A DNA stretch of 62,956 nucleotides from an uncultured Desulfurococcaceae archaeon (lineage in GTDB: Archaea; Thermoproteota; Thermoprotei_A; Sulfolobales; NBVN01): the NCBI GenBank assembly GCA_964636755.1, contig CAZWSU010000066.1:1-62956 (forward strand). Reading direction: 5' to 3'. The notes below the pieces were generated by a model. The model saw only the letters and a program-made list of their open reading frames with translations. It ran no database searches and had not been told where the DNA came from. Below, piece by piece: positions 6,853 to 33,300 of the stretch; within the stretch, counting starts at the first letter, position 1, and each line of letters begins with the position of its first letter. The position numbers were made by a program, and so were the translations under genes.

Positions 6853-7770
6853 CTAATGTTTGTGAGTAAAGCGTCTCGCCATGAATACGCCTGCTAATCC
6901 CCACACTAAAGTCGCTAAACATAATATTAGGGGGGTCGCGAAAGCTGTTTGAGGGTACGTACCCCTAGGCGTGAACTCTATCCTCAAGTAACTAAAGGTT
7001 CCTGTTGGGTTAGGTGTTGAGGAGAATAAGTAAATCAGTAATTGCTTGCCGGGAGTCTCATAAAAAGCGGTATTATAGGTTACTTCAGGAATTCCGGTCC
7101 TGTTCAAAACCATTAATGCCAGCGCGTTCTTAACTCTTAACTCTGCGTTTACTAAGGTAATACTGCTAAAGCTATCCTTAAATAAGTAGGCATAACCTAA
7201 CGCGTTCAAGAAAGGTTCTTTAAGACTCGTGAAATTCAGTGAGTTAAGCTCCCTAACTATCTTTGAAGTCTTGTATACGTATCCTAACTCACGACCTGCG
7301 TTAACGTATGGCACGAGAGAAATTGTTGTTGCAAGCACGATGAGGAAGAACCCTAGCACGAACAAGGATAGAACACGTGATGCTGAGTGGATCTTCTTCA
7401 TCAGTAATCTAGAGATTAAAGCATAAAAAGCTGTTGAGAAGACTGTGAGAGCCGCTACGTAATAGTTGTAACCTCGCGCAACAACTACGGCGTAGCCGGA
7501 GGGGTACTCATCAAGTATCACAGACGTGGTAAACCCTTTGCACACGGTTAAGATAGTTACGTTATTTCTTAAATCGACTACGCCAATACCTATCGTTGAT
7601 TTAGGATACCACTCACTCGCTAACACAGGTTTATTAAGTGGGAAAACCCAGTTATAAGAAGTGCTATAATCGACGTAAACTACGTAGGAAGATACACTTA
7701 CCAAGAACACTAAAGAAATGATCCATACAAGATCTTTGAAGGTAAGCTTAATCATAACTTGCCTTTCCAC
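6853..7770 (-). CDS. Membrane protein of unknown function (N- and C-terminal TM helices, basic tail)
   Basis: 305-aa ORF with several hydrophobic segments and the C-terminal tail TYPQTAFATPLILCLATLVWGLAGVFMARRFTHKH. It lies directly downstream of the stalk-protein gene on the same strand. Confidence 0.5.
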   Translation of the reverse strand: MERQVMIKLTFKDLVWIISLVFLVSVSSYVVYVDYSTSYNWVFPLNKPVLASEWYPKSTIGIGVVDLRNNVTILTVCKGFTTSVILDEYPSGYAVVVARGYNYYVAALTVFSTAFYALISRLLMKKIHSASRVLSLFVLGFFLIVLATTISLVPYVNAGRELGYVYKTSKIVRELNSLNFTSLKEPFLNALGYAYLFKDSFSSITLVNAELRVKNALALMVLNRTGIPEVTYNTAFYETPGKQLLIYLFSSTPNPTGTFSYLRIEFTPRGTYPQTAFATPLILCLATLVWGLAGVFMARRFTHKH

Positions 7771-17994: not shown

Positions 17995-19725
17995 CTAAGA
18001 CTTAATCATTTCTTTAAGTCTCTTATTTATCTCACTTGGCTGAAGTATTTTAGTTAAGTGTGTTACCGTATACCCACTCGTTCTTAGCTTATGGGTTAAG
18101 TAGAGATACTTGACGGTGTGTGCTCTAGGATGCACTATTACGAAACTAGAGTTTTTAGGCAAGCCCTGCCTCTCTAATTCCTCAATTAGTGACTCGGATA
18201 AAACCCTATAGTACCTGTCTATAGATCCTAACGGCTCGTTAGCTACTCTAAGCTCTTCTATTAGGCTCAGCGACCCTTTCCTAACCCAGCTCTCGTAATT
18301 AAACCTTGACTCAATGTCCTCACTACTTATTATGAAATCCAACGCTTTTAGGACGTCGAGTATACCCCCCTTAACTAAGTATATCTTACCGTTAGGTAGC
18401 TTAAGGTAGAGGATTTTCACGTATTTTTCCATTAAGAGAGCGCTGTACGTGGCTTGTATCAAGTTATCTAATTCTACAGGGTTGGACGCGTCCCAGTCAG
18501 CAATGACTAGACTGGACCTCCCGCCACCCCCCTCACCGCTACGGGTGTAGACCTTAACAGCTAACTCGCCGGTACTCACGCTCTTCTTCCAGTGTATGCT
18601 CCTCGGGTGATCACCCGGGTAATACTCTCTAACACCTACGTAATCACCTAAGAAAGTCTTAGAAGTCTGAAGCTCTATGAATTCAAGCACTTTAGCTGGA
18701 ACCGTCCACCTAAACCTATATTTAATCAGGTCTCCGTAAAGTGTTGAAACCCCTGAACCAAACCCTTGACCACCGCTCACGCCCCCCTCACCCACAGCGC
18801 CTCCTGTGAGACCCGCGCTAGGCCCCGCACCACTCACGCCTACGTATCCACTAGCTGACTCACCCCCCAAACCACCCTTAAGCACCGGAACCCGTGGCGA
18901 GATAGCGACTTCGAGTTTGCCGAGATATATGATCGGGGACTTAACAAGCTCTACATACCTATTCAGAATCTCCCTAACACTCCTAACTAAAGTCAGGGAT
19001 TTAGGTACTGTCTTAACTCTGATTGAGTAAGGACCATGCGTAACTCGGGAAAACCCTCTTAAGTCACTTAAGACTACTTTGATTAAGTGCCTCCTAACCC
19101 CGGCTATGTTCGATGATAACTTAATAGTTAAGTGTTTAGAGCCCCTTAAGAACCCCCCTGCGGTAACGTTATCGTCTAGTAAGACCTTATAATACACTTC
19201 ATGCCCGGACTCTATACTTAAAGGAACCTCGACGTAATCGCCCAAATATGCTGAGAACGTTGCCCTGTGTAAGACGACGCGAGACTTAGAGATGCGAACG
19301 TAAGATATGAAGGTCACGACAAGTATGCCGGCTAAATATGAAGTAGCTGTAATTAAGGTTAGCGTTCTCAGTAAGTAAAGCGGGGTGAAAACTAAGGTCA
19401 CGGAAGCTAGCTTGAGAGATAGGTGCGTGTCTGAAGGGGTGTGTGACGCGTCATCGTAAGAGTATGGAAGTAGGAAAGACAGGATAACACTAAGTAGGGT
19501 GGATAATTGTGTGAGGCCTGATGAAAGCAAACACCAGGAAAAAACCGTGAGAAGTCTTGGCATACCCTGCAAGTAGAGGTAGAGAGCCGCGGCAACAACG
19601 CTGTAGAGCATGTGAATAGGGTTGCTCAAGACTAGAGAGTTATAGAAACCGGTAAGCACGATAAGCGGCGAAACCACTAAGTAAGCAGCCCTACCTTTCC
19701 TTAAATACATAATAAGCCACCACAC
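17995..19725 (-). CDS. Polytopic membrane protein with C-terminal DUF58 (vWA-like) domain; MoxR partner
   Basis: N-terminal ~150 aa of TM helices, a beta-rich middle domain, a Gly-rich linker, then the DUF58 signature FLGDYVGVREYYPGDHPRSIHWKKS. It is the last gene of the MoxR operon. Confidence 0.8.
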   Translation of the reverse strand: MWWLIMYLRKGRAAYLVVSPLIVLTGFYNSLVLSNPIHMLYSVVAAALYLYLQGMPRLLTVFSWCLLSSGLTQLSTLLSVILSFLLPYSYDDASHTPSDTHLSLKLASVTLVFTPLYLLRTLTLITATSYLAGILVVTFISYVRISKSRVVLHRATFSAYLGDYVEVPLSIESGHEVYYKVLLDDNVTAGGFLRGSKHLTIKLSSNIAGVRRHLIKVVLSDLRGFSRVTHGPYSIRVKTVPKSLTLVRSVREILNRYVELVKSPIIYLGKLEVAISPRVPVLKGGLGGESASGYVGVSGAGPSAGLTGGAVGEGGVSGGQGFGSGVSTLYGDLIKYRFRWTVPAKVLEFIELQTSKTFLGDYVGVREYYPGDHPRSIHWKKSVSTGELAVKVYTRSGEGGGGRSSLVIADWDASNPVELDNLIQATYSALLMEKYVKILYLKLPNGKIYLVKGGILDVLKALDFIISSEDIESRFNYESWVRKGSLSLIEELRVANEPLGSIDRYYRVLSESLIEELERQGLPKNSSFVIVHPRAHTVKYLYLTHKLRTSGYTVTHLTKILQPSEINKRLKEMIKS

Positions 19726-20530
19726 ATAGCAGGGAAACTAATAAAATAAGTGCTGGGTAAGTAACTTCATATGTGGTAGTTACTAGCCTCAAATACTCGA
19801 TGAAGTCTTTCTTAACCCACGATTGATCAATAACTAATCCCCTATCACTTACGAGGCAATCAATGAAGTCTTTATTAGCCTCAAATAACTCGTTCGTAAA
19901 AACCTGGGGGGAGAAAACAAGGATTAAACGACCCCCGCCATAACTAAGTGAGATCCCTAAAGGAAACGAGCCTAACGGCTCCTCAATATCCATGTAGCCG
20001 TTACCGTTTAAATCAACATAGGAGAAGTTACTGGAATACGCTACCACGTCAGTGTTCTTATCTGTTACGACATAATACGGCGTGTAGGTAGTGAGAGTAC
20101 AATTACAATGGTTTGAGAAGCCTAGCGGGTGAAACCTGTCACCTCCATTATAAATCATGTCGTAAATAACACTACTCGTAACAGTTAAGTTAAGTTTCGC
20201 GTAATGACTTAAGCTCTCAATAGCCCCCCAACCCCCAGAGAATATCACATATCCCCCCTCATTAACCAACCTCAAGATGATCTCTGCCTCACTTGACGTA
20301 ACGTTATCTAAGCGAATGATTAAATACACCGTGTCTCGAGGGCTTATATCACGTAACGTGCTCAGGTCCGTGATCACGAGAGCTTCGTAAGACTCTCTGA
20401 GTTTCGAGATACCGTTATCCCCATAATTAACAACGCTGTAGCTGGTTGTTGAGGGGAGTGTGAACATGATTACCAGCCCCACCATAACCCCTATCAACAA
20501 GCTGACCAAGAGTAGATTACTCACCTTCAT
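19691..20530 (-). CDS. Bitopic envelope protein, DUF4350-like
   Basis: N-terminal TM, then EAEIILRLVNEGGYVIFSGG and SYGGGRLILVFSPQVFTNELFEANKDFIDCLV, which match my recollection of DUF4350. C-terminal TM plus KER. Confidence 0.5.
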   Translation of the reverse strand: MKVSNLLLVSLLIGVMVGLVIMFTLPSTTSYSVVNYGDNGISKLRESYEALVITDLSTLRDISPRDTVYLIIRLDNVTSSEAEIILRLVNEGGYVIFSGGWGAIESLSHYAKLNLTVTSSVIYDMIYNGGDRFHPLGFSNHCNCTLTTYTPYYVVTDKNTDVVAYSSNFSYVDLNGNGYMDIEEPLGSFPLGISLSYGGGRLILVFSPQVFTNELFEANKDFIDCLVSDRGLVIDQSWVKKDFIEYLRLVTTTYEVTYPALILLVSLLCVVAYYVFKER

Positions 20531-22301
20531 GTCTCGTAACCTCCTCAGCTAACTCCACTGCCTCACGATAATCTTGCTTCTTACTAGAGTACAAATCCTT
20601 CTCAGTTATTATCAGTAATTTCCAGAGGGTGTTTCTGAGGAAACCGCTTAAGCCCGCTCTACTGAAATGCTCTCTGAGAGTCTCAGTAACCTTAGGTAAC
20701 GGGATTCCTAGCTTCCTCAGTGTTGCGTAGTAAAGCTCGGCGATCCTCGAGCTTATGGGGTAGGGTGACTTAAGATAAGAACTTACTTCCCGCACCACCC
20801 TCTTTACGGAGGTCTTGCCACCCACTACGTTACCTTTAATGAATATCATGAAGCTTCTCTCCTTATTAGAGACAAGGACTATTAAGAATATTGAGACTAA
20901 ACCCGTCAATAAGGCGGTGACGGGATTGACTACGAAGACCTGTCGTTGGTAGAGGTATGGCTCCTTCAAGTGTTGAGTAGGCTCTACCACTACGTTCAGG
21001 TTCGTAAGAAATGCTGGGAAGAATCCTACGAAAACTCTCGCAACTAAGACGTCGCTTAATGTGTACTCCCCCCTCAGCGCGCCACCAGCGTACACCTTAA
21101 CGCTTAACTGGCTTTCTTCAGGGTCATCGTTAATTAAGAGTATTGTTAAGAAGCCGTCGCCGGTGAAGAAGATCTCAGGAAATACTATTCTTACTTTAGG
21201 TATTCTGGGCAAGACCATGACAGGCTTAGTGATCGTCAGTCCTGCAGAGTCTTGAGTAGGGTGTACGGAAACCTTCAAGAGGCTGACACCAACAGTTAAA
21301 TCAAACGATGAGGTGTTGACGTAGTAGCGTGTTAAGCCGGGAACCAAACTCAAGTAGCCAACCAGTACGTCGCCGAACTCCACAGTAGCGTTATAGTAGT
21401 TGTCCGAGTATAAGTTCAGCTCAATAGAATCCCCCCTATATATGCTTGCAGGACATTCAACCCATACCTTAGGAACTCTATAAACAACTTTAAGTATTTT
21501 ATAATTCACGTAGTTCTCGCTGCTTGAAGTGTTGCGTGCCGCGATGATCAACACGAAAACTCCCTCTGGCCTAGTAGGAGTTTTAACGAATTCAGCGCTT
21601 GGGGTTCTCAGAAAGCCTACATACTTACCCCCACCTAATGACGTGATATTAGCGTATTCAATGAATCTTAGGTCAGGCCACGTGTAAAGGGAGGCACTAC
21701 TCAACGTTAGGGTGGGGTCCCCTAACGTCACCTCAAATTCTACGGGTTCTTCTGGGGTGTAGACTTCTTTATCTAACCTTACGTCAATGAGTCCGTTTGA
21801 CATGAGATATTTCGAGAATATTATTTGAGTTAAGCTCGGGATCAACTCGTCACTAATTTTCTTAACGCTTAACGAGATACTCGTTCTCAAGCTATTGCTT
21901 AATCCTGGGTCGTGTGCGCACGCGGACAATCTATTTACGTACTGACTAATTACGTCAGGTAATTTAGAATGTAGCTCGGAAAGCTCACTCAACATTCTAT
22001 GAGCTTCCTCTTTGGTTAGGGCCTCATCAACGGTCCGTGCGGAGAGGTTATGATATCTTAGTAGTAGGTCGTAGGAGTTCTTATGTAAGTTGCCTATGTC
22101 GCCCGGTATTGAAGCGCTACCTATGGATTGAATCATTCGGTAAGCACTGGGTTCTCCTTCTACCACAGCTCTTAAAGATTTATCGAGAAGTATTAACAGG
22201 TTTGAGCAATCCACTAGCTCAGGTTCTGACGCACTTGTTAAATAAGGCGTGGATATCGCGATCAAGACAACTAAGAATAGCGTTAACCCACCTATTCTCA
22301 T
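20517..22301 (-). CDS. Secreted/anchored protein with cytoplasmic DUF4129-like C-terminal domain
   Basis: Signal peptide, ~440-aa extracytoplasmic region, one TM (ALLTGLVSIFLIVLV), then AELYYATLRKLGIPLPKVTETLREHF...DYREAVELAEEV, which resembles DUF4129. Confidence 0.5.
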   Translation of the reverse strand: MRIGGLTLFLVVLIAISTPYLTSASEPELVDCSNLLILLDKSLRAVVEGEPSAYRMIQSIGSASIPGDIGNLHKNSYDLLLRYHNLSARTVDEALTKEEAHRMLSELSELHSKLPDVISQYVNRLSACAHDPGLSNSLRTSISLSVKKISDELIPSLTQIIFSKYLMSNGLIDVRLDKEVYTPEEPVEFEVTLGDPTLTLSSASLYTWPDLRFIEYANITSLGGGKYVGFLRTPSAEFVKTPTRPEGVFVLIIAARNTSSSENYVNYKILKVVYRVPKVWVECPASIYRGDSIELNLYSDNYYNATVEFGDVLVGYLSLVPGLTRYYVNTSSFDLTVGVSLLKVSVHPTQDSAGLTITKPVMVLPRIPKVRIVFPEIFFTGDGFLTILLINDDPEESQLSVKVYAGGALRGEYTLSDVLVARVFVGFFPAFLTNLNVVVEPTQHLKEPYLYQRQVFVVNPVTALLTGLVSIFLIVLVSNKERSFMIFIKGNVVGGKTSVKRVVREVSSYLKSPYPISSRIAELYYATLRKLGIPLPKVTETLREHFSRAGLSGFLRNTLWKLLIITEKDLYSSKKQDYREAVELAEEVTRHEGE

Positions 22302-22552
22302 CTCATTAAAACCTCATACACTCTACTACCTACTAGGAAGGCAAAGATAGAGAGTAGTAACGCGTGGATTAATCTCACCATCGTAGCTGACTTAGTTGAC
22401 GGTCTTGCAAGAGAGTAACTCACGTAGAAAGAGAGTATGTTGAGGGCTACGTACGCGTCAATCCTAGACTCGCTCAAGAGTAGCAAAGAAATATTGAAAG
22501 CTGATGAGAGCGCTACGTAAAGTAACACAAACCTCTCGGTAACCCCAACCAC
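22298..22552 (-). CDS. Small membrane protein (84 aa, ~3 TM)
   Basis: Hydrophobic ORF with a 4-nt stop/start overlap with the downstream gene, abutting the upstream gene. Confidence 0.5.
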   Translation of the reverse strand: MVGVTERFVLLYVALSSAFNISLLLLSESRIDAYVALNILSFYVSYSLARPSTKSATMVRLIHALLLSIFAFLVGSRVYEVLMR

Positions 22553-23245
22553 CTACTCAATCACCTCGAAAACGTAGTAAACCCCGCTCACAGTGTTTCC
22601 CGAATCACTAAGTTTTAAGTCCTTACCTATCAGTCTAGCAGTAGCTACGGCTGCTAAAGTCTTGAGAGGATCTAACGGCATCTTCTCAAACCTCTTTAAG
22701 ACCTTATTCACGTTTATTAAATCAACTCTGATAAGCTTTTCAGATAATTTAACGGCCACCCTACCGCACAAGCCTAGAGTGTCTACAAGAATTGAATTCA
22801 AGTTAGTCTCAACAACCTTCTCAGTAACCTCATTGACTTGAGTAACTTCCTCAAGAACGTTTTCTGCGGGTATTGCTAGGTAAGGTTCACCAAACTTAAC
22901 ACCTAGTCCCGGAATGACTGCTTCTGGCTTACCTCTCTTAAGCATGACTAACCTTAACTCGTTATCTACCCGCGCCACGTAGAAGTCTGACTCCAGGAGA
23001 TCTATGTTTTCTATGACGCTTGTTAAGGCGTTGTTAGTTAAGCTCAGGTACTCTATGAGGGAATTAATAACTGATTCCGAGACAGCGAAACTAAGCATTA
23101 ATAAGACGAGTCCTGTAAGAATAGACGACAAGGAAACACCTATTAAGGAAGGTTCTTGATTTACCACACCATATAATAAGATTAGGGAAGAGACCACGAG
23201 AATATTAGAACTCAAGATAAGTAGTGACTTACTCAAGCAAACCAC
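22553..23245 (-). CDS. Membrane-anchored protein of unknown function (2 N-terminal TM plus ~150-aa soluble domain)
   Basis: 230-aa ORF inside the MoxR operon. I recognised no motif. Confidence 0.5.
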   Translation of the reverse strand: MVCLSKSLLILSSNILVVSSLILLYGVVNQEPSLIGVSLSSILTGLVLLMLSFAVSESVINSLIEYLSLTNNALTSVIENIDLLESDFYVARVDNELRLVMLKRGKPEAVIPGLGVKFGEPYLAIPAENVLEEVTQVNEVTEKVVETNLNSILVDTLGLCGRVAVKLSEKLIRVDLINVNKVLKRFEKMPLDPLKTLAAVATARLIGKDLKLSDSGNTVSGVYYVFEVIE

Positions 23246-23889
23246 CTCACTACCAAAGGCTTTATGAGTATGTCCAGGTTAATCATGTAAGGAGTTTTAT
23301 TCTTATTTCTCTCATGGAACACCGCCTTAATTAAGAATAAGAAGAGATTACAGCAGAGAACGTAAGCGTTGACGTATAGTGCCGGACTCAAATATATTGT
23401 GAGAAAGCATGGGAAAATAAAGTATTTTAAGACAGTATTCAGGGAATATCGCTCCCTAAACAGCCTGTAAACGATGACATCCACAATAGAAGCTAGTGAG
23501 TACCTAACAGGAGTGGCTAAACCAACCCAAACACCTAGTAAGGCGCTAGCTAGCAAAACAACGGGTGTAGCGTTATTGAACACGTCCCTAACACTCAGGT
23601 AATCCCAGTAAGAACTCAGTAACGCGAGTACAGCAACCAGCAAAACCAAATCAACTAGGTAGTCCGGCAACCCTAAAATCTTGAAGACCGAGTATAATAA
23701 CGCGATAGTGACGTACATGAGGGGAACTAAGGTTGGCTTAACACCCTTGTAAACACCGTATAAGAACACGTTGTACGTAGCTATGAGTAGGAAGAAGAGC
23801 GCGGCCGCGTTAAGCAGGCTCGTACCAGCAACTACTGAGAACAGATTCACTGTAGAGGAGATTAAGTATGTTGTGAGTTCCAATAGCAT
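23233..23889 (-). CDS. Polytopic membrane protein of unknown function (~6-7 TM)
   Basis: 218-aa hydrophobic ORF, 10 nt downstream of moxR and overlapping the next gene by 13 nt. Confidence 0.5.
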   Translation of the reverse strand: MLLELTTYLISSTVNLFSVVAGTSLLNAAALFFLLIATYNVFLYGVYKGVKPTLVPLMYVTIALLYSVFKILGLPDYLVDLVLLVAVLALLSSYWDYLSVRDVFNNATPVVLLASALLGVWVGLATPVRYSLASIVDVIVYRLFRERYSLNTVLKYFIFPCFLTIYLSPALYVNAYVLCCNLFLFLIKAVFHERNKNKTPYMINLDILIKPLVVRWFA

Positions 23890-23899
23890 GATTCATCAA

Positions 23900-24859
23900 C
23901 TATTTAGGTACGGGCACCTTATTGAGTGCTTCCTCAACTAAAGACTCGGGGGTGATTCCCTCGGCTTCATACTCGTCCTTAACCCTAATCTTATGAGCTA
24001 TTACGGGAACCGCCAAGCTCTTCACATCATCCGGTATGACGTAGTCCCTCCCATCCATTAAGGCGTACGCCCTACTAATTATCGCTAAGTGTATTGAAGC
24101 TCTATGAGAAGGTCCGTAAAGAACTGCTTCATGATTCCTTAAATACGTCACCAACCTAACTATGTAGTCGCTTATCGCGTCACTAACGTGAACTAACTCA
24201 TTAATCCTGTTACTTATGTTGAACACAACGTCCGGCGTGGTTACCGGACTCACCGGCGGGTCCACGACCATGGTAGATCTCCTAACGATCTCTACCTCGT
24301 CATCAGGAGGGTTGTAATAGCTTGGAACCCTAACAGCGAATCTGTCCGCAAGGGTTTCCATAATCTGATACGCGCCGGCAGCTATCTTAGGAGAAACCTC
24401 AGTGGCTACAACCATGAAAGGCTTGGGGAGGGAGTAAGGTACGCCGTCTATAGTCACTCTATACTCTTGCATCGCTTCAAGAAGAGCTGCTTGAGATCTA
24501 GTAGGGACTCTGTTAAGCTCGTCAATCATTAATATGTTAGTGAATACCGGGCCCTTAACGAACTCCTTACTCCCGTCCAGCCTATACACGTGGAATCCCA
24601 AGATATCCGTAGGCAGTATGTCTGGATGTCCCTGAACCCTCCTAAATTCCCCTCTGATCACCTTAGAGAGGGATTTGGCTAACAGAGTCTTACCTGTCCC
24701 AGGATAGCCTTCTATCAGTAAGTGACCACCGCTAAACAAAGTGGTCACGGCTAGTTTAACGACCTCAACCTTTCCTACGTAAACCCTCCTCAACTCCTCC
24801 ACAGCATCTCTTAAGACCTGCCCTGCTTCCTCTAACTCCACTTCACGTCCCTCAGTCAC
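23900..24859 (-). CDS. moxR: MoxR-family AAA+ ATPase
   Basis: Walker A GYPGTGKTLLAKSL, Walker B ILMIDELNRVP, and QAALLEAMQEYRVTIDG. 319 aa, typical MoxR size. Confidence 0.92.
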   Translation of the reverse strand: MTEGREVELEEAGQVLRDAVEELRRVYVGKVEVVKLAVTTLFSGGHLLIEGYPGTGKTLLAKSLSKVIRGEFRRVQGHPDILPTDILGFHVYRLDGSKEFVKGPVFTNILMIDELNRVPTRSQAALLEAMQEYRVTIDGVPYSLPKPFMVVATEVSPKIAAGAYQIMETLADRFAVRVPSYYNPPDDEVEIVRRSTMVVDPPVSPVTTPDVVFNISNRINELVHVSDAISDYIVRLVTYLRNHEAVLYGPSHRASIHLAIISRAYALMDGRDYVIPDDVKSLAVPVIAHKIRVKDEYEAEGITPESLVEEALNKVPVPK

Positions 24860-26550
24860 AACCTAATAAACTTAAGGGCTTTCCGTATAAAAATAATTGA
24901 GTTCGGAAGCCAAATCACTATTAAGTAAGCGGTTAAGAACAACGCTAGCGCTTGCGACGTTAGTATAGACCAGTAGAGAACATCCTCAAGAGCTCGGGTC
25001 GAGCCCCCGCTGGCCGAGACCCCCAGAAGCCCTTCCTCAACCTCCTTAATAACTGGGTCAATGCTCGCCTCCCTAGACAACCTCATTAAGGATACCCTAA
25101 CGTATGCTACGACTTTTTCCTCAGGCGCTTTAGTAATGACGGGTATCAAGACGTATCCTAAGACCCCTCTAACCCCCTCTTTCTCAATCTCTATGAAATA
25201 CAGCCTAGTCCCGTTAACTAACTTACTCCAAGAATTAAACACCTCATATCCCTGCAACGTCAAGCATAACTGCCATGTGTGGAGCCTGCCAGGAGTCTCA
25301 ACAACCTCAACATACCCAGTGTAACTCTTGTTTCCTACGACCAAGACATCGTAAACGCTGAAAGCGCCTAGAACCCTAGTTAAGTAGCTGTTATAGGAGT
25401 AGCGAACAAGTCTTAAGTTCTTGCTAGCGTTGAACACATACTTAGGAGGGTAACTCATGAAATCACTTAACTCAGCTAGGTCAACGAATATGCCGTTACC
25501 TAATGAGGAAGTTTCGTGACTAACGATTATCTGAGATAATGTTATGGTGTAAGCAGAAAAGAACACTAGTATGACTACGAAAACCCCGGCTACATACCCC
25601 CACTCAACGTTAACTCTCCTCAGCAAAGGTCTCGGAGTAACGTATCTTAATCCAGCGTATTTGTCTGCTATTATGAAAGCCGTGAGAACTGAAATAGCTG
25701 AGTAAATCGCTGAAGGTAGGTGGTGGAAAAGTCCCATACCCGCTTCGAGGCCGTAACTAGTGCTAGCCAGCACAACCAACGTAACCCTAATCAAATTACC
25801 TAAGAAACCTATGAGGGTAGCTAATGAAAGAGAAGCTAAAATACCTGCTAACTTCCTCCTCATACCGTACGGGCTGAAAACAGCTAAGTACACTATAACT
25901 GGGACCACAGCAAGAACTGAGGACATAGTGACTATCCCGGTACACGCGACTTCCACGTCAAACATCGCCGACCCTGAAGGAGTTTCTATCATTAATCGAG
26001 TGTAAGCCGGGCTCTCAAGGAGGGTTGCTCCAGTCAATAACGCCGCTAACCTACCAACAAGTCTTGAAAGATAAGGGGTTATGAAGTCTATGAAGGAGGT
26101 TGGCAGGGGAACTATAAGGAATAGGGAGAGCAACGGTATTAAGTCTTTCAGGGTTGCCGGACTATAGACTAATATGATTAGAGACAACATAATAAGCACT
26201 AAACTAATGCTCCCGTACTGAATCGAGTGCTCCGCGTCAAAAAGCCTTGAAATATAGAAGACCAAACTCAAGCTAGCTAGCAAGGCTGAAGCCAGAACCT
26301 TGCTGACCCTCACCTCGTAAGACAAGCCTAAATTCCTGAGTAGGTAGTAGAAGAGAACCACTACAGAGAATAACACCACTATCAAGTAACTATACTCTTC
26401 TACCAACGCTAACCTTATGTAGTCTTCGAGAACGCCTCTGTAAAGAGACTCAAAAAGAAAAACCATGATGCCTGTAAGGATTGTGAACCCGGCTACAACG
26501 ACCCTTCTATAATCTTGTAACTCGCTCACGTACATGTACATCCTACCCAC
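24856..26550 (-). CDS. Exosortase/archaeosortase-family transpeptidase fused to an EpsI-like extracytoplasmic domain and a terminal TM
   Basis: ~8 TM N-terminal half carries the family's three signature residues in context: Cys203 (DVEVACTGIV; codon TGT at 25942-25944 on the minus strand), Arg255 (GNLIRV) and His276/277 (GLFHHLP). The C-terminal ~200 aa contain HTWQLCLTLQGYEV, which resembles the EpsI motif H-[ST]-P-x-x-C-L-x-x-x-G-W. Confidence 0.7.
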   Translation of the reverse strand: MGRMYMYVSELQDYRRVVVAGFTILTGIMVFLFESLYRGVLEDYIRLALVEEYSYLIVVLFSVVVLFYYLLRNLGLSYEVRVSKVLASALLASLSLVFYISRLFDAEHSIQYGSISLVLIMLSLIILVYSPATLKDLIPLLSLFLIVPLPTSFIDFITPYLSRLVGRLAALLTGATLLESPAYTRLMIETPSGSAMFDVEVACTGIVTMSSVLAVVPVIVYLAVFSPYGMRRKLAGILASLSLATLIGFLGNLIRVTLVVLASTSYGLEAGMGLFHHLPSAIYSAISVLTAFIIADKYAGLRYVTPRPLLRRVNVEWGYVAGVFVVILVFFSAYTITLSQIIVSHETSSLGNGIFVDLAELSDFMSYPPKYVFNASKNLRLVRYSYNSYLTRVLGAFSVYDVLVVGNKSYTGYVEVVETPGRLHTWQLCLTLQGYEVFNSWSKLVNGTRLYFIEIEKEGVRGVLGYVLIPVITKAPEEKVVAYVRVSLMRLSREASIDPVIKEVEEGLLGVSASGGSTRALEDVLYWSILTSQALALFLTAYLIVIWLPNSIIFIRKALKFIRL

Positions 26551-26609
26551 GATTTACTAGAGATATCAAGCCAAAATAAAGTAGTGATTCTAACCTCCTT
26601 GAAGGCCGC

Positions 26610-27269
26610 TTAAACGAGCTTGCCGCGTACTAGGAACTTACTAATTCCTATGCCGTAGTCCGCGCTTAAGTCTGTAGTGGTTATGAGTATTGCAGTCTCT
26701 GGAAGCAGTGTCTTAAGTAAGCTCACGATTTTAGATGTGGTGATCTCGTCTAAGTTTGAGAACGGCTCGTCAGCAACCAGCAGCTTAGGCTTCTTAACCA
26801 ACGCTCTAGCTATAGCTACCCTTTGCCTCTCACCACCACTTAACTCAGTAGGGTACCTATTCTCCAATCCTCCTAAACCAACCTGGTCTAAAACATACCT
26901 AACCCTATCCTCCCTCTCTTTCTTCGGAATCCCCAGCAAAGCCAGAGGTAACTCAACGTTCTCGTAAATCGTGAGCTTCGATAAAAGAACATATTCTTGA
27001 TCAACATACCCTATATACTTGAGCCTCAAAAGCGACCTGAGGTCATCTTTTGAGTTAGTTAAGTCAATACCCATGAATCTCACGGAACCCTCGTCAGGAA
27101 CTAACTGAAGTGAGGCTATCTTAGCCAGAGTCGTCTTACCAACACCGCTCCTCCCCCTCACCACCAAGACATCACCACTCTTCAGGCTGAGAGACACATC
27201 CACTAAAACGAACTCGTTACCTACCACCTTACTAACATTCCTTAACTCAAGCAACTCCAAACCCATCAC
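26610..27269 (-). CDS. ABC transporter ATP-binding protein (MacB/LolD/FtsE-like)
   Basis: Walker A GRSGVGKTTLAK, signature LSGGERQRVAIARAL, Walker B LLVADEPFSNLD. 219 aa. Confidence 0.9.
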   Translation of the reverse strand: MMGLELLELRNVSKVVGNEFVLVDVSLSLKSGDVLVVRGRSGVGKTTLAKIASLQLVPDEGSVRFMGIDLTNSKDDLRSLLRLKYIGYVDQEYVLLSKLTIYENVELPLALLGIPKKEREDRVRYVLDQVGLGGLENRYPTELSGGERQRVAIARALVKKPKLLVADEPFSNLDEITTSKIVSLLKTLLPETAILITTTDLSADYGIGISKFLVRGKLV

Positions 27270-28762
27270 CTCATAACGTAGACAGCACCGTTATTGTAAA
27301 TGAAGTCCTTAACCAAATTCAGCGAACTCAATCCTCGTATCATGTAGATATCAATAGGTGATAAGACGTACCCAAACCTGAAGTTATCAGAGTAGAACAC
27401 CGTCGGCGAACCCCTGCTAGTCTCAGTTAACTCAAGACCGCAAAAGAGATCCACAGTCACGGCATCACCTACTAAATACTTTACCTTAACGTCACCACAT
27501 AGCTTCCCGCTACCGAGGTGTTTGATTAAATTACTCAACCCGACTACCTCACGCTCACCATACTTCCAGTAATAAGTAATTGAGTCACCGCAGAAGATTA
27601 AGTTAATCAGTAATGTTGCCGTGATTATCGTGGAGATAATGAGTGCGGACGCCGCGTATCTTTCAGTACTTGCTCGACGCACATTCAGAGAAGCCGTAAT
27701 CGCTATAGCGGTGAAGAACAGGTAGTTAAGTATTCTGTGCAATATAGTCATGAGAGGTGGGGAATATATAGCGATATATTGGAGTCCCACCGATATCGGG
27801 AGGAGTGTAGACGGTATCAGAAGTTTGTGATCTTCTCCTCCCTTATCTCGTGTTGGGAGGGAAGACAAGATGATGACGGGAACCACGTACAAGAGTGTAG
27901 GGAATATCCCTAGAAGCTTAGAATTCGATACTAAGATTGCCGTAATCCCCGGAATTAAGATCAGTAAGGTCTTGGTGAAATCTCCTCCTACGAGCGCGTA
28001 CCAGCCATACGTCGCAGTACTCAAAACAAATAATATTAGGAAGTCAATTAATTCAAACCTAATCATCAACCCTCTCCAACCGTAAGAAGCCATGTAGGTA
28101 AAGTAGGTAAGAGTGAGTAGCGAGAACGCGAGAACACATCTCCTAATACTCACGACATGAGAGGAGCCCTCTAAACGCTTCACCAAAGTTGTGAATATGT
28201 AACTGCCGATGAAAACGATTATCATTAAGGGAGTTAAAGGGTGTGAGATCGTTAGCGAGAAAGCCACTAAAAGAGCTAGTACGGAAGTACTCAAATAACA
28301 TCCAGTAATCACTAAAGCAATAAACAATAAGGCTAAGGGGTATGCGTAAACTTCCTTTAAAGTAGTTGACGTGAAAATAACTAGAGACGGTATGGAAGTG
28401 AAAACTAGCGTGCTTAGCAAAGCCGAGTGTGTTCCTCTATACTTCTTGACTATGACGTAGGTAGTAACTAATGCTGAGGCTTGAGTAATGATGACTCCCG
28501 CGAATCTAAAGAAGTAAGTTGCTTCCAAACCTGTGAGCACTTCATACAAAGCACTCTCAAGAATTACCGCAGGCCATTTGTTGTGATACCCACCTAATAT
28601 GGAGTCATCCCATACCCTATACTCAGGGCTTGAGAGGATAGTTCTGCTTAACCTTATTAAAGGCCACGTATCCGTTGAGAAGGGCTGGTTAGTTATTAAG
28701 GTCGGTGTTAACCTAATCAATAATGCTGCGAGAATAACCAAGAATAAGGCTTTATTCCTCAC
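27266..28762 (-). CDS. Polytopic membrane protein (~11-12 TM plus C-terminal soluble domain), possibly GT-C-type glycosyltransferase or polymerase
   Basis: 498 aa. The first extracytoplasmic loop has an acidic motif (PFSTDTWP). The overall layout resembles GT-C / PMT-like enzymes. This assignment is a guess. Confidence 0.4.
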   Translation of the reverse strand: MRNKALFLVILAALLIRLTPTLITNQPFSTDTWPLIRLSRTILSSPEYRVWDDSILGGYHNKWPAVILESALYEVLTGLEATYFFRFAGVIITQASALVTTYVIVKKYRGTHSALLSTLVFTSIPSLVIFTSTTLKEVYAYPLALLFIALVITGCYLSTSVLALLVAFSLTISHPLTPLMIIVFIGSYIFTTLVKRLEGSSHVVSIRRCVLAFSLLTLTYFTYMASYGWRGLMIRFELIDFLILFVLSTATYGWYALVGGDFTKTLLILIPGITAILVSNSKLLGIFPTLLYVVPVIILSSLPTRDKGGEDHKLLIPSTLLPISVGLQYIAIYSPPLMTILHRILNYLFFTAIAITASLNVRRASTERYAASALIISTIITATLLINLIFCGDSITYYWKYGEREVVGLSNLIKHLGSGKLCGDVKVKYLVGDAVTVDLFCGLELTETSRGSPTVFYSDNFRFGYVLSPIDIYMIRGLSSLNLVKDFIYNNGAVYVMR

Positions 28763-29894
28763 TCCTCACGAACCCCCATGAAACACCTACAAGTAGTAAG
28801 GAAGTCTTAGAAGAGAACACGAATAGCGTATCATAAAGAGACATCTGCGGACTCATGCGATGGCTGAGTACCTCCAGCTTAATTAAATCATTAAAGTATT
28901 GAAGTATTGTGAAAGCAACTAAGACAGCTACTGCAACGTAAGTCAGGGTCTGTAGAGTTAAGAGTGCGAAGACCCTCTTCCTGGAAATCCCTAGGTATCT
29001 TAACACCGCAATAGCCTTCTTAGCTGACCTAAAGATATGTTCGCCGATAAGTATGTCGCTGATTATCACTAAAGCCGCGACGGTGTAGGATAGGGAGAAA
29101 ATGAAGTCTCTATGTATTCCTAGCTTAGCTACGTATATTTCCGGGATATCACCATGCAACTCGTGAACTAAGATATTACCTCGCTGTGATAAAACTAGTA
29201 AAGCTTTTTGAAGTAGCTTTATGTCTTCAGGATTGAGACCTATCCTCGCACTTATACTGCTTAAGATGCTCAAGTTCTTTGCTCGAAGAATTACGACCGA
29301 GTATTGATTGTTGCTTATTCCTCTAATAGTCCTAGATAACTCAATACTAGCTATGATCTCATAGTTTAGGAGTGAGTGGAATTGCTTAACACCACAAACC
29401 GTTACGAGAACAGGTTCTTTAATGAATGGCGAGTATAGCGCGAGCGTCTCTCCCTCACTAAGATTTAATTCTCTCGCTAGACCCTCACCGACGACGACGC
29501 AGGAAATATTGCTTCCTGAGCCATGATAATGATGAAAACTAGAGAACTCGGTTTTTTCAATCCCCCTAATAACTACGGTCTTACCCTTGAAGTACGCGAT
29601 GGAGAACACCAATGATTCCACGCTAATACCTTCTAAGTCGTTCACTAAATTTCTCACGTATTCCTCACTAACTACGGAAGTTAGTGGGGATATGGCGTAA
29701 CTAGAGATGACTAGACCTTCACCGTTAGTTAAGAGAAGGTTCTCGTAAAAGTTGTAGAGTGAGGTGAAAATACCTAAAATACTTAAAGAAATAGTTGATA
29801 GCAGGACTAGCAAGACTATAAAGCTTGCGTGCGTAATTATGGTGAGTGATTTAACGGTTGCTCTAAAACAACTAATTACTAACACGTCAATCAC
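28752..29894 (-). CDS. FtsX/MacB-type ABC permease (paralogue 1)
   Basis: Layout is 1 TM, a ~230-aa extracytoplasmic domain, then 3 TM. The FtsX-family loop RSAKKAIAVLRYLGISRKRVFALLTLQTL is present. Confidence 0.7.
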   Translation of the reverse strand: MIDVLVISCFRATVKSLTIITHASFIVLLVLLSTISLSILGIFTSLYNFYENLLLTNGEGLVISSYAISPLTSVVSEEYVRNLVNDLEGISVESLVFSIAYFKGKTVVIRGIEKTEFSSFHHYHGSGSNISCVVVGEGLARELNLSEGETLALYSPFIKEPVLVTVCGVKQFHSLLNYEIIASIELSRTIRGISNNQYSVVILRAKNLSILSSISARIGLNPEDIKLLQKALLVLSQRGNILVHELHGDIPEIYVAKLGIHRDFIFSLSYTVAALVIISDILIGEHIFRSAKKAIAVLRYLGISRKRVFALLTLQTLTYVAVAVLVAFTILQYFNDLIKLEVLSHRMSPQMSLYDTLFVFSSKTSLLLVGVSWGFVRSEE

Positions 29895-30855
29895 CTAACG
29901 TGAAAGCTAGGTAACCTATCGGGAAGTTTAAGAGGGAGATGAGAGCTGCTAGCACTAAGTATCCTGCGTGTGGTTCAGGCATTGGTAGCACAGGGTTCAT
30001 CAGAATCTTCATCACAGCGATTCCAGCACCCACTATTAAGTAGCTTAACGCGATAGTGTATAGAGTTACTAGCCCGGCAATCATCGATGTAGATAACGTG
30101 AAGACTAAGCGTATATTAGAGGTGCTTAGACCTTGCATACTAAGGATTCTTAATTCTTCGTCCAGTCTTTCAAGTAGTTTTGTGTTAGCTAGGTAGAGCA
30201 CAGGTATGTAAGACAAGAAGATTATCAATGCATAGCCTTCAGAAAACTCAGTAAGCTCCCTGATTAAGGATCCTATGACGAATTCACTAACTTCCCTGGC
30301 ATTACGCACGCATATAAATCCCCTATTCAGTCCTGCAATCTCGTTAATCCCTTCTAATATCAGGAAATTCTCTAGTTTCTCGTCGTGGGAGTACGTCACG
30401 CAGGCTGTAATACATTCCTTACCCACACATACCTCAATAAACTCTCCTAGAGATGTATTCAGTTCTTTCAACAACGCAGAACTTGCTGAGACTCTCGCAT
30501 ACCTGCAGTAGTCTTCGGAGACTTTCAGGCGTATGTTTGTGAGATTCTTTAACCCTATCACATCGCTTACTACGATGACTTGCGTCTGCAGCAGAGTTTC
30601 ATGATGAATTATAGTCACTAAACCGTACTTTATCGGAAGGCAACAGTTACTTGGGTCTATATTTTCGTCTATCGTTATGGAAGTACCGTTAACGTAGCCT
30701 AGCAATCTTTCTGAGTAAGCCGCGACAGAGTTGACTGTAAGAGATAAAGTGAGGAAGATGAGTGTGGGAGGTAACACAACCAGCAAAACAATCATGGATA
30801 ACCGCTTTCTAATAATAGAAAGCAACAAGATAGTGAGTCCGTGTCTCCTCTTCAT
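29887..30855 (-). CDS. FtsX/MacB-type ABC permease (paralogue 2)
   Basis: Same 1+3 TM topology, with EELRILSMQGLSTSNIRLVFTLSTSMIAG. Highly diverged from paralogue 1. Confidence 0.65.
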   Translation of the reverse strand: MKRRHGLTILLLSIIRKRLSMIVLLVVLPPTLIFLTLSLTVNSVAAYSERLLGYVNGTSITIDENIDPSNCCLPIKYGLVTIIHHETLLQTQVIVVSDVIGLKNLTNIRLKVSEDYCRYARVSASSALLKELNTSLGEFIEVCVGKECITACVTYSHDEKLENFLILEGINEIAGLNRGFICVRNAREVSEFVIGSLIRELTEFSEGYALIIFLSYIPVLYLANTKLLERLDEELRILSMQGLSTSNIRLVFTLSTSMIAGLVTLYTIALSYLIVGAGIAVMKILMNPVLPMPEPHAGYLVLAALISLLNFPIGYLAFTLGD

Positions 30856-31382
30856 GATCTCATCTTTGCCTGTTTAACGTGTCTGTATTTCCTGTAAGCT
30901 GCTCCAAAACCCCCGGTGATTGAGTAAACAAGTAACGTTACTAGAACAGGGGTTAGTCTTATCCCCCAAGGAGTGTAGTTAAGTATTAAACCTAGTAAGG
31001 GAACGATAGCTAGTGAGAGCCCTATTGAGAGAGCCAGTCTCTCTAAATCACTTAAGGATCCCTCGTCAGGGTAAAGTAGCTCAACCGTGACGTAACCGAC
31101 TAGGAAGAGAACTAGTATAGATCCGGCAACATACCTTAAGTAAATAATCTGAGGTATTAGATCTGTGAGGTAAACAGATACCACGGAGATAGCGACTAAA
31201 GCAATCGTGGTCCAGAGCCAGGAAGAGTAATCAGGTCTCAGTAAATATTCTGCGAAGACTTTCGGGGGGTTAGGATCAATTATCTCTATCTTACCTTCTA
31301 AAACCTCATCATAAACCTTCTTCAAAACCCTGTAGTTGTAGCCTAAAGACTTGACGTATTCCTCGAGTGTTTTGTTAGGCAA
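30852..31382 (-). CDS. DUF1616-like membrane protein (TM half), with short N-terminal soluble segment
   Basis: LERLALSIGLSLAIVPLLGLILNYTPWGIRLTPVLV matches the DUF1616 membrane-core signature as I recall it. Confidence 0.6.
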   Translation of the reverse strand: MPNKTLEEYVKSLGYNYRVLKKVYDEVLEGKIEIIDPNPPKVFAEYLLRPDYSSWLWTTIALVAISVVSVYLTDLIPQIIYLRYVAGSILVLFLVGYVTVELLYPDEGSLSDLERLALSIGLSLAIVPLLGLILNYTPWGIRLTPVLVTLLVYSITGGFGAAYRKYRHVKQAKMRS

Positions 31383-31383
31383 T

Positions 31384-31884
31384 TTAATGAACCCCCGCTA
31401 CCTTGACATGTAAGTGAGTCCATATCCCGCTGTAGACCCACACACCCCTACTTGCTTCATAGACCCATAACTCGAAGATTAAGGTAATGTTACCCCCGAC
31501 TAACGACTCATTAATTATCACAGGAACTCTAGTTCTTATTAATACCTCCTCGTTGTGATCAAGGAGTCTAGTAAAATTCATTAAGGTCTTTAAGTCAGCT
31601 GAGGTAGTGTTAGTGGGTAGTTCGTTGTTTTTACCTATTTTATACCTGACTTGAGCTAGTACTGGGTAACCCTTATAGTTAAAGATGGAGAGACATAAGT
31701 CTACGTCACTCCCAGCTACCACGAACTCAGGATAACTACCTATCTTGCAATCCTTGTCTAGCAGACCCAGAGCTACGAAAGGTTCTGTGACTTCAGGTCT
31801 TAACAAAGTAGCTACTGAGATCACCGAACCAATCACTACTATGGCGAGAATTACCGCGAATACCTCATCGTTTACTACGTTCAT
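31384..31884 (-). CDS. DUF1616-like extracytoplasmic beta-domain protein with its own N-terminal TM
   Basis: TEPFVALGLLDKDCKIGSYPEFVVAGSDVDLCLSIFNYKGYPV...YKIG resembles the C-terminal half of DUF1616 proteins. Confidence 0.5.
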   Translation of the reverse strand: MNVVNDEVFAVILAIVVIGSVISVATLLRPEVTEPFVALGLLDKDCKIGSYPEFVVAGSDVDLCLSIFNYKGYPVLAQVRYKIGKNNELPTNTTSADLKTLMNFTRLLDHNEEVLIRTRVPVIINESLVGGNITLIFELWVYEASRGVWVYSGIWTHLHVKVAGVH

Positions 31885-32302
31885 TAATTAAAACCCACCT
31901 CTTCCTACTCTTAAACCATACGTAAACGTAGAGTCTGGGGAGCAGTAAGTAGACTAGCGCTGGCAGAGAAAGTATTGCTGCTGCCGTGGCGTACTTGATC
32001 ACGGTTTGCGAGAAAACTATGTTATCGGCCTTAGACTCAAGCTCACTTAAGTTAGCCTCGATTCCGATCATCAACTCCATCGCTTCTTCAGACCTATTCG
32101 CTTCAAGAAGTTGCAGGACGTTTTTTAAGACCGTGACATATTGACTCACGTTAATTCCTTTCAAAGCTAAGTCCACGATCCTACCGTATAAATCAAGAAA
32201 CTTCTCGTAAGGATCCCCGCATGAGACTATGGCTGACTGAAGAACTATACTTGTTAGCAAGGTGAGCAAAATCAGCAACGCGAAGGTCCTCAACGAATGC
32301 AT
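31865..32302 (-). CDS. Small secreted helical protein with C-terminal TM anchor and basic tail; first gene of the cluster
   Basis: Signal peptide MHSLRTFALLILLTLLTSIVLQSA, ~90 helical residues, a TM, then KSRKRWVLINERSKR. ATG at 32302. Confidence 0.45.
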   Translation of the reverse strand: MHSLRTFALLILLTLLTSIVLQSAIVSCGDPYEKFLDLYGRIVDLALKGINVSQYVTVLKNVLQLLEANRSEEAMELMIGIEANLSELESKADNIVFSQTVIKYATAAAILSLPALVYLLLPRLYVYVWFKSRKRWVLINERSKR

Positions 32303-32343: not shown

Positions 32344-33300
32344 TTGTTGGTGTTAGGGACGCCCTACGACGACCTAACAATAATTATACCAACCCTTAAG
32401 GAAGCCGAGAGCATAGGTCTGGTTCTAGATGAGTTATTCTCAGTAGGCATTCCGCCAGACAAGATATTAGTTGTTGACGGCTACAGCGATGACGGAACAC
32501 GTGAGATAGCTGAGAGCAAGGGCGTGAAGGTAGTCTTACAGGAAGGTTTTGGTAAGGCAGACGCTATTAAGACGGGTTCTAAGCTGGTTAAGACAACCTA
32601 CGCTCTAGTAATGGATGGAGATTACACATACCCAGCGACGCGCGTACCTGAACTCTACAGCAAGATTTGCGAGGGCTACGACCTAGTCTTAGGTTATAGG
32701 AAGTACGTGGAGAAGGGAGCTATGAATAACCTCTTCAAGTTCGGGAACAAAATAATAACGACGTTCGTTAACGTTCTCTACGGTACTAAGGTTTCCGATG
32801 TCTTAACAGGTATGTATGTGGTTAGATCGAGTGTTCTGAAGGAGATTTTTTACGAGGCGAGAGACTTCAGCATAGAGATAGAGATCTTCTCTCACGTAGC
32901 TAACACAACAGGCAGAATCTCTGAGGTCCCTATCGAGTACAGGAAGAGGAGAGGTGTTAAGAAACTGAGAGTCTCACACGGCTTTAAGATAGCCTGGGAT
33001 TTAATCAGGTTAACATGGAGGTATAACCCCAGCTACTTAATATTCCTGCTAGGCGCTGCTCTCTTAATTCCGGGACTCACCTTAGGAGCTTACGTAGCTT
33101 ATCATTACTTCTTCACAGGAATCAAATACTATCTTAAAGGGCTAGTAGCAATACTACTAACTCTAGCAGGTTTCCAATCCTTATTAATGGCTATCATGTC
33201 TATCTACACTAAGAGGATAGAGATGAGGACAATACATAAAATTAATGAGTTAAAGATGTGTATTGACGAGTTAAGAGCGAGTCTTGAGAAGACTAGATGA
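32344..33300 (+). CDS. GT2-family glycosyltransferase (dolichyl-phosphate sugar synthase-like) with two C-terminal TM helices
   Basis: Contains IIIPTLKEAESIG, VVDGYSDDGT and MDGDYTY (DxD), which are GT-A/GT2 hallmarks. It diverges from the envelope cluster across a 41-nt A/T-rich spacer. Confidence 0.85.
   Translation: MLVLGTPYDDLTIIIPTLKEAESIGLVLDELFSVGIPPDKILVVDGYSDDGTREIAESKGVKVVLQEGFGKADAIKTGSKLVKTTYALVMDGDYTYPATRVPELYSKICEGYDLVLGYRKYVEKGAMNNLFKFGNKIITTFVNVLYGTKVSDVLTGMYVVRSSVLKEIFYEARDFSIEIEIFSHVANTTGRISEVPIEYRKRRGVKKLRVSHGFKIAWDLIRLTWRYNPSYLIFLLGAALLIPGLTLGAYVAYHYFFTGIKYYLKGLVAILLTLAGFQSLLMAIMSIYTKRIEMRTIHKINELKMCIDELRASLEKTR

Follow-up and report, generated by a model that had tools for sequence, protein, structure and literature searches.

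Which function does an archaeosortase-family protein serve in a crenarchaeon when its gene adjoins moxR and the classic sorting signals are absent from its surroundings? The question is raised by an open reading frame (ORF) on the reverse strand of contig CAZWSU010000066.1 (assembly GCA_964636755.1) from an uncultured Desulfurococcaceae archaeon. The whole stretch of 62,956 nucleotides (nt) was analysed and is called the window. An initial annotation of its sequence had described the ORF product as an archaeosortase fused to an EpsI-like domain, and had coupled the gene to moxR. We found an archaeal archaeosortase, probably with an EpsI-type ectodomain, that is integrated in the arCOG01314 envelope module. 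The coordinates of all features are collected in Table 1.

The family assignment was checked with curated hidden Markov models (HMMs). The Pfam model PF09721 (Exosortase_EpsH) matched amino acids (aa) 32-284 with 63.4 bits (E = 2.8e-17; gathering cut-off 25.7 bits). The NCBIfam exosortase/archaeosortase signature TIGR04178 matched residues 197-293 with 27 bits (cut-off 23), a span that includes Cys203, Arg255 and His276. With both curated cut-offs passed, the product of 24856..26550 belongs to the exosortase/archaeosortase superfamily, as the initial annotation had proposed. None of the named Art/Xrt subfamily models, whose definitions were taken from reviews, reached its cut-off (ArtC 11.2 against 100, XrtN 20 against 200 and XrtS 18 against 145). 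No match to the protein was found among the PDB sequences with phmmer, and a profile search with an 81-member alignment in a word-indexed database returned the close family only and did not reach the bacterial exosortases.

The positions and contexts of the three residues that had been picked as catalytic were confirmed by script. As a reference we used XrtD, the VPLPA-CTERM-specific exosortase of Aliiroseovarius sp. M344 (NZ_CP081154, 533 aa). In both a local and a global alignment, the Cys, Arg and His paired with the ACSG, NSVRI and GFLHF motifs of XrtD and are equivalent to its residues. Among 60 close homologues (35-99% identity, each 530-610 aa) the Cys is kept in 59, the Arg in 59 and the His in 54. 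The E-value of the PF09721 match together with this conservation places the features of the ORF far beyond chance. In a preprint by Haft, Cys, Arg and His are suspected to form the family's catalytic triad. The enzyme is real and probably active.

The initial annotation had also described a polytopic core, a transmembrane (TM) helix, an ectodomain of about 200 residues and a final TM helix. Hydropathy and an AlphaFold2 model, which was built from 23 homologues (mean predicted local distance difference test, pLDDT, 83.9; predicted template modelling score, pTM, 0.84), reproduced this layout. The polytopic core extends to about residue 298 and is followed by a TM helix (316-351), an alpha/beta domain (352-516) and a last helix (517-562). 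The domain is there, and its size is closer to 165-185 residues than to 200. In the model a beta-hairpin insert at 175-197 stands immediately ahead of Cys203. Basic loops are found at 228-233 (MRRK) and 299-315 (five Arg), and the positive-inside rule would place Cys203, Arg255 and His276 as well as the alpha/beta domain on the outer side of the membrane. The protein has three N-x-S/T sequons, all within the alpha/beta domain, which is consistent with its outward location.

The fusion of EpsH and EpsI has been known since Haft 2006, and EpsI has been without a known function since then. XrtD is such a protein, with PF09721 at residues 34-283 and PF11984, the EpsI family, at 327-530 (E 1e-53), the same layout as in the window protein. 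In both, the core is followed by one TM helix and a domain of about 180-200 aa that is presumed to face outwards. Pairwise, the two proteins align collinearly from the Arg motif via the His motif and the linker helix into the ectodomain, through the EpsI motif; LTRVLGA is matched to VEKVLGA and GRLHTWQLCLTLQGYEVFN to SGIHSPEVCLPVGGWEVFS. The motif HTWQLCLTLQGYEV, which the annotation had likened to EpsI, was confirmed by script at aa 424 and stands at the equivalent place of the H-x4-C-L-x3-G-aromatic pattern in XrtD. The invariant H, C, L, G and W of EpsI match the spacing of the most conserved residues of the archaeal family, H424, C429, L430, G434 and Y435. From the EpsI motif H-S-P-E-V-C-L-P-x-G-G-W the window protein keeps the H, C, L, G and aromatic positions and does not keep S-P-E and P. 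Distant members of the family read HSWPVCL or HNWPVCL, forms that lie between HTWQLCL and the EpsI form HSPEVCL. When the ORF translations of the window and the loci were scanned (123,844 residues), H-x4-C-L-x3-G-[WYF] was present in archaeosortase genes only.

The predicted folds point in the same direction. In an AlphaFold2 model of a genuine EpsI protein (pLDDT 88) the elements are arranged as TM, beta, alpha, beta, beta, short motif helix, beta, beta, beta, and the eight elements of the window ectodomain follow this order in the two models, as do the predicted strands and helices of XrtD. Both models share weak neighbours in the PDB, namely the Eag/DUF1795 chaperones (1tu1 and 6xrf for one model, 6xrr and 6xrb for the other), PsbP, PYR/PYL-START and kojibiose phosphorylase, none with E < 0.001. 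PF11984 is the sole second Pfam family that recurs among the 81 members of the family. It was found in four of them, each time below the threshold (best E 0.02), and in the relative P0133 the match covers the motif region.

Against this stand the profile comparisons. The EpsI models PF11984 and TIGR02914 did not match the window protein even at E <= 10, and the Foldseek matches of the ectodomain were all weak (E >= 0.009). With hhalign, the comparisons to EpsI alignments were not significant (P 0.83, 0.018 and 0.0028, the last obtained with the more diverse half of the archaeosortase family; probability 0.05-11%), and the run against the single XrtD sequence was uninformative (probability 0.15%). 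The HMM cross-scores with EpsI were above those of shuffled controls, yet near 0 bits. The domain could then be a lineage-specific ectodomain that is not homologous to EpsI and has come to its H-x4-C-L motif and its fold by convergence or chance. This would fit with the hhalign probabilities, the sub-threshold PF11984 matches and the additional terminal TM helix that XrtD does not have. An exhaustive HMMER search of 1.84 billion representatives with the domain profile also speaks for it, since no free-standing EpsI protein was matched. However, the 97 proteins obtained, almost all of them 500-595 aa long with the domain at about 340-520, carry it only in fusion with an archaeosortase core, and a tblastn search of 72,556 plasmids gave a single record, with the match inside an XrtD gene. 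Position, topology, motif spacing and element order are all common to the two domains, and so are the intermediate motif forms, the weak PDB neighbours and the alignment register: every hhalign run, including the one against XrtD alone, picked one register of 85-86 columns, the same as in the pairwise XrtD alignment. The confinement of the motif pattern to archaeosortase genes also argues against coincidence. We therefore regard an origin unrelated to EpsI as rather unlikely and the ectodomain as a likely remote EpsI homologue, on the basis of architecture, motif and predicted fold and below every curated threshold. The EpsI-like character that the initial annotation had claimed is partly supported on these grounds, and the EpsI models and hhalign did not support it.

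The gene neighbourhood was then compared among relatives. Loci were gathered around homologues at 18-85% identity and searched with HMMs of the window's neighbouring genes. Flanking sequence was sufficient to judge 17 loci; the contigs of L011, L012, L019 and L022 end before the full module can be read. A locus search with the alignment of the C-terminal domain gave 8 loci. In 17 of 17 judged loci, at 18-54% identity, the archaeosortase gene was accompanied by part or all of a module that comprises, besides the archaeosortase, MoxR, a ~218-aa polytopic protein, proteins of about 230, 84 and 595 aa, DUF4350 and a ~565-aa DUF58-like protein. The hosts are nearly all Desulfurococcaceae, Zestosphaera, Thermogladius, Thermosphaera, Ignisphaera and 'Geoarchaeota' metagenome-assembled genomes. 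MoxR was present in 16 of the 17 loci and adjoined the archaeosortase gene in 15, and in L004 it is placed at the module's far end. In the stretch of L020 that was examined, the model searches did not detect MoxR; DUF4350 alone was detected and other module-sized genes were assigned by size. Four gene orders were observed: with the archaeosortase gene first (most loci), with MoxR first (L016, L017), with the archaeosortase gene last (L004) and the order of L020. In L020, the locus of the distant relative P0139, two glycosyltransferase genes (GT1 and GT4) are inserted in the module, which suggests that the module is connected with glycosylation. The last module gene gave weak DUF58 matches in 8 of 8 orthologues (best E 5.5e-4), and weak DUF4129 matches were found in 3 of 10 orthologues of the ~595-aa protein.

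A module of this kind was predicted as an envelope or secretion system by Makarova et al. 2015, who called it 'arCOG01314-associated' (PMC5898192). The operon in the window matches this MoxR/vWA/DUF4350 module; shared components are DUF4350/arCOG01314, MoxR, a vWA/DUF58-type protein, pfam07760 (DUF1616) and small proteins with 2-5 TM helices. The component table and the text of the 2015 study are without an exosortase or archaeosortase, whereas here the archaeosortase-EpsI-like fusion is a constant member. A full-text search of the literature returned no paper that ties an exosortase to MoxR, DUF4350, DUF58 or DUF1616 in this sense.

The linkage to moxR was thus correctly recognised in the initial annotation and is strongly conserved, and the larger module of about eight genes had been overlooked. 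A chaperone function of MoxR in sorting, as the annotation had further suggested, may exist, but MoxR's usual partner is a DUF58/vWA-type protein. Such a protein is encoded in the same operon, and MoxR more probably acts on this DUF58-like partner than on the sortase.

The sorting signals were examined in the window. The annotation had noted that PGF, PEF, VPXXXP and PIP signals with a TM helix are missing, and this was confirmed: the NCBIfam CTERM sorting-domain models matched none of ten candidate window proteins, and a regular-expression scan of 114 window ORFs, which also covered PEP and similar motifs, found no PGF, PEF, PIP or VPxxxP with a hydrophobic stretch. The one combination of a PEP with a TM helix, in the C-terminal part of the 322-aa permease, was rejected as a PEP-CTERM signal because the protein is polytopic, has no basic tail and the motif is absent in the orthologues. 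Any new signal of the enzyme, as proposed in the annotation, would be putative. Four window proteins, the 305-aa, 1121-aa, DUF4350 and 145-aa proteins, combine a signal peptide with a C-terminal TM helix and a short, basic tail. In the ~595-aa protein, V-x-N abuts the single TM helix in 12 of 12 sequences, and EKxF follows directly after the helix in 10 of 12, ahead of a conserved cytoplasmic tail. This tail reads ETLREH...ERDLYS (20517-22301 and orthologues in L001-L017). ArtA cleaves one of its substrates at an internal tripartite signal, and by this analogy the 594-aa DUF4129-like protein of the window may be regarded as a candidate substrate. The DUF4350 protein is a further candidate.

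In the 81 representatives of the family, Cys, Arg and His are all kept in 60 and the Cys is lost in 14. The ectodomain residue Cys429 is absent in 12 of the 14 members that have no core Cys and is kept in 63 of the 67 that have it. These members are mutually related, so no formal statistic is attached to the counts. The loss of Cys429 together with the core Cys suggests a cooperation between the H-x4-C motif and the active site. Relatives without the Cys include P0060, P0283 and P0284 (locus L022:8710-10437), P0090 and P0119. In one Cys-to-Tyr lineage, represented by three independent assemblies, the Arg, the His, HTWQLCL and the ABC/archaeosortase-MoxR context are retained. Since this lineage keeps the operon context, the archaeosortase-family protein may also have a non-catalytic role in the module.

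Taken together, the archaeosortase-EpsI-like protein appears somewhat likely to act as a processing enzyme within the MoxR/DUF58/DUF4350 module. Several findings weigh against this reading. The equivalence of the residues was set via XrtD, whereas in ArtA the residues found critical by mutagenesis are Cys173, Arg214 and Arg253. The catalytic Cys is missing from some relatives that share the operon context, so the module does not always need catalysis. The V-x-N/EKxF pattern comes from 12 sequences and could be purely structural, the DUF4350 orthologues share no conserved motif ahead of their TM helix, and the substrate assignment draws on inferred candidates. The absence of the Cys from 14 of the 81 representatives and the unchanged context of the Tyr lineage would be expected if the protein were a structural or recognition subunit of a MoxR/DUF58/DUF4350 membrane complex with a dispensable peptidase activity, and the best-conserved block of the family is indeed in the ectodomain and not in the core. 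However, the window protein has Cys, Arg and His, as have most of the representatives, and the close homologues keep these residues at 90-98%, which indicates selection for catalysis. A mere scaffold is therefore very improbable for the window protein.

It was also considered whether the enzyme is a housekeeping archaeosortase that processes S-layer or other surface proteins whose genes lie elsewhere in the genome and which bear an undescribed C-terminal signal, in which case the MoxR operon would reflect co-regulation of envelope genes only. ArtA acts on many unlinked substrates, and the textbook tripartite signal is seen in no protein of the module. In addition, two secreted proteins encoded outside the module (6853..7770 and 7843..11208) have a TM helix plus basic tail at the C-terminus, and the latter, the 1121-aa coiled-coil protein, would be one example of such a substrate. 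On the other hand, the C-terminal-TM proteins of the window share no motif, and the linkage to the module holds at 18-22% identity and across four gene orders, which is tighter than mere co-regulation predicts. We consider a housekeeping role unlikely. A more far-reaching proposal, a dedicated crenarchaeal sorting system with a new signal (V-x-N, TM helix and EKxF, or the DUF4350 anchor) and with the H-x4-C motif in the active site, is at present quite improbable.

Processing within the module, which we prefer, would proceed as follows. Helices 1-8 would form the exosortase/archaeosortase core, an intramembrane cysteine endopeptidase and possibly a transpeptidase, with Cys203, Arg255 and His276 at the outer membrane face. 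Helix 9 would take the chain to the outside, where the EpsI-resembling domain of about 165 aa would lie on the side of the active site, and helix 10 would bring the C-terminus back to the cytoplasm. The archaeosortase would be a core component of the conserved operon with MoxR, the three small membrane proteins and the DUF4129-like, DUF4350 and DUF58-like proteins. Most likely the enzyme would cut a surface protein made by or with the module at a signal close to the membrane, by the outer end of a TM helix, and the cleavage would free or re-anchor the ectodomain of this protein. The EpsI-like domain probably aids substrate binding or shapes the active site, since its H-x4-C motif is lost along with the catalytic residues in the degenerate relatives. 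The cytoplasmic MoxR would more probably serve the DUF58-like protein.

Table 1. Features of the archaeosortase-family gene and its surroundings in the window
Feature	Position (nt)	Strand	Basis or remark
Archaeosortase-family gene, 564 aa as listed, GTG start	24856..26550	-	ORF list of the window
Exosortase/archaeosortase polytopic core, aa 32-284	25699..26457	-	PF09721 and TIGR04178
Cys203 codon, putative nucleophile, VEVACTGIV (from aa 199)	25942..25944	-	aligned with ACSG Cys of XrtD
Arg255 codon, GNLIRV (from aa 251)	25786..25788	-	aligned with NSVRI of XrtD
His276 codon, GLFHHLP (from aa 273; His276/277)	25723..25725	-	aligned with GFLHF of XrtD
TM helix 9, aa 316-351, after an Arg-rich, presumably cytoplasmic loop, leads to the ectodomain	25498..25605	-	hydropathy, AlphaFold2
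Presumed extracytoplasmic alpha/beta domain, EpsI-like, aa 352-516	25003..25497	-	AlphaFold2, alignments, fold comparison
HTWQLCLTLQGY motif, best-conserved block of the family; spacing as in the EpsI motif HSPEVCLPVGGW	25246..25281	-	
Final TM helix 10, aa 517-562, basic tail RKALKFIRL	24865..25002	-	hydropathy, AlphaFold2
GTGA, archaeosortase stop codon (TGA) and moxR start codon (GTG) overlapping by 4 nt	24856..24859	-	
MoxR-type AAA+ ATPase, 319 aa	23900..24859	-	Pfam AAA_3 9.7e-42, AAA_lid_2
218-aa polytopic membrane protein of the module	23233..23889	-	
230-aa module protein, two N-terminal TM helices and soluble domain	22553..23245	-	
84-aa two-TM module protein	22298..22552	-	
594-aa protein: signal peptide, large ectodomain, V-x-N/TM/EKxF, DUF4129-like cytoplasmic tail	20517..22301	-	
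DUF4350 protein (arCOG01314-type): signal peptide, ectodomain, C-terminal TM, short tail	19691..20530	-	Pfam DUF4350 6e-10, PMC5898192
DUF58-like (vWA-type) membrane protein, 576 aa	17995..19725	-	weak DUF58 matches
Upstream ABC set	26610..30855	-	same set adjoins the archaeosortase gene in L007, L009, L022
ABC ATPase	26610-27269	-	
498-aa polytopic protein, between ABC ATPase and FtsX-type permease genes	27266-28762	-	
FtsX-type permease	28752-29894	-	
322-aa permease-like protein	29887-30855	-	
Split DUF1616 pair (176 and 166 aa) and 145-aa secreted protein	30852..32302	-	trio recurs near the module in most loci
Family 2 glycosyltransferase beside the cluster	32344..33300	+	recurs in L002, L009, L019

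The reading frame itself was inspected at both ends. Since the homologues begin with 'MY', translation probably starts at ATG 26541 or 26535 and not at GTG 26550. The overlap of 4 nt with moxR that the initial annotation had reported is real. In the relatives P0002, P0005 and P0007 the archaeosortase stop codon TGA has become TGG (window equivalent 24830-24859, reverse strand), and their ORFs extend at least 9 codons into moxR (…RLWLRDVEWS), giving a longer overlap. No sequence identical to the window protein was found in an exact-sequence look-up, and its nearest relative is 99% identical. Upstream of the gene there is a gap of 59 nt (26551-26609). A box rich in T and A (TTTATTTT) stands in it, some 30 nt ahead of the start, and could be an archaeal promoter that separates the archaeosortase-MoxR operon from the ABC set. 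The genes upstream are unrelated in several of the loci.

DUF1616, glycosyltransferase and ABC genes are usually found in the vicinity of the archaeosortase gene. Where the ABC set recurs, two FtsX/MacB-like permeases are encoded together with an ATPase and a ~500-aa polytopic protein. The 498-aa protein of the window has no Pfam or NCBIfam match, and proteins of 500-516 aa take its position in L007, L009 and L022. The 145-aa secreted protein (31865-32302, reverse strand) has a strongly conserved C-terminal LLPR[LV]Y.Y.W[FY]+.R+KW, with a TM helix and a basic, Trp-rich tail. Its gene always adjoins the split DUF1616 pair; in L019 the corresponding region lies within a single DUF1616 protein of 319 aa. 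Farther away, the 1121-aa protein (7843-11208, reverse strand) carries a signal peptide and a coiled-coil stalk (about 900-1070) and is anchored by a C-terminal TM segment. Beside it, a 1409-aa S8 subtilase without a C-terminal anchor is encoded (11271-15500, reverse strand). The arrangement recalls, as an analogy only, tetrabrachion of Staphylothermus and its STABLE protease. The 1121-aa protein was rejected as a tetrabrachion homologue, as it gave no match to a PDB tetrabrachion sequence.

To our knowledge, archaeosortases have been studied in haloarchaea only. With ArtA of Haloferax volcanii and the ArtB-ArtE subfamilies the window protein shares the superfamily (PF09721, TIGR04178), the polytopic core, the conserved Cys and Arg and the presumed processing of TM-proximal signals on surface proteins. 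It differs from ArtA-ArtE by the fused ectodomain and the tenth helix and by scores below the cut-offs of the Art models; the signals PGF, PEF, PIP and VPXXXP are absent from the window, and the host is a crenarchaeon. A review of 2018 assigned the archaeosortases to a subset of the Euryarchaeota. In comparison to XrtD, the window protein is archaeal (Thermoproteota), has an extra C-terminal TM helix and an ectodomain that the EpsI models do not recognise, and is without nearby PEP-CTERM or VPLPA-CTERM proteins. XrtD is found in exopolysaccharide loci with an adjacent sorting-signal protein, in contrast to the MoxR/DUF58/DUF4350 context of the window.

What is new here is that the archaeosortase gene is tied to MoxR and/or the DUF58-like/DUF4350/DUF4129-like module in all loci judged, and that the exosortase plus EpsI-type architecture is found also in hyperthermophilic Thermoproteota. 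With the gene tied to one operon, substrates can be sought among a small number of co-encoded proteins. The joint loss of the ectodomain motif and the catalytic residues hints at a function of EpsI-type domains at the active site; if the H-x4-C motif is indeed part of it, this would be the first functional clue to bacterial EpsI. If confirmed, the finding would connect two uncharacterised systems and provide a biochemical handle for each. It points to an unstudied system of surface-protein processing in heat-loving archaea.

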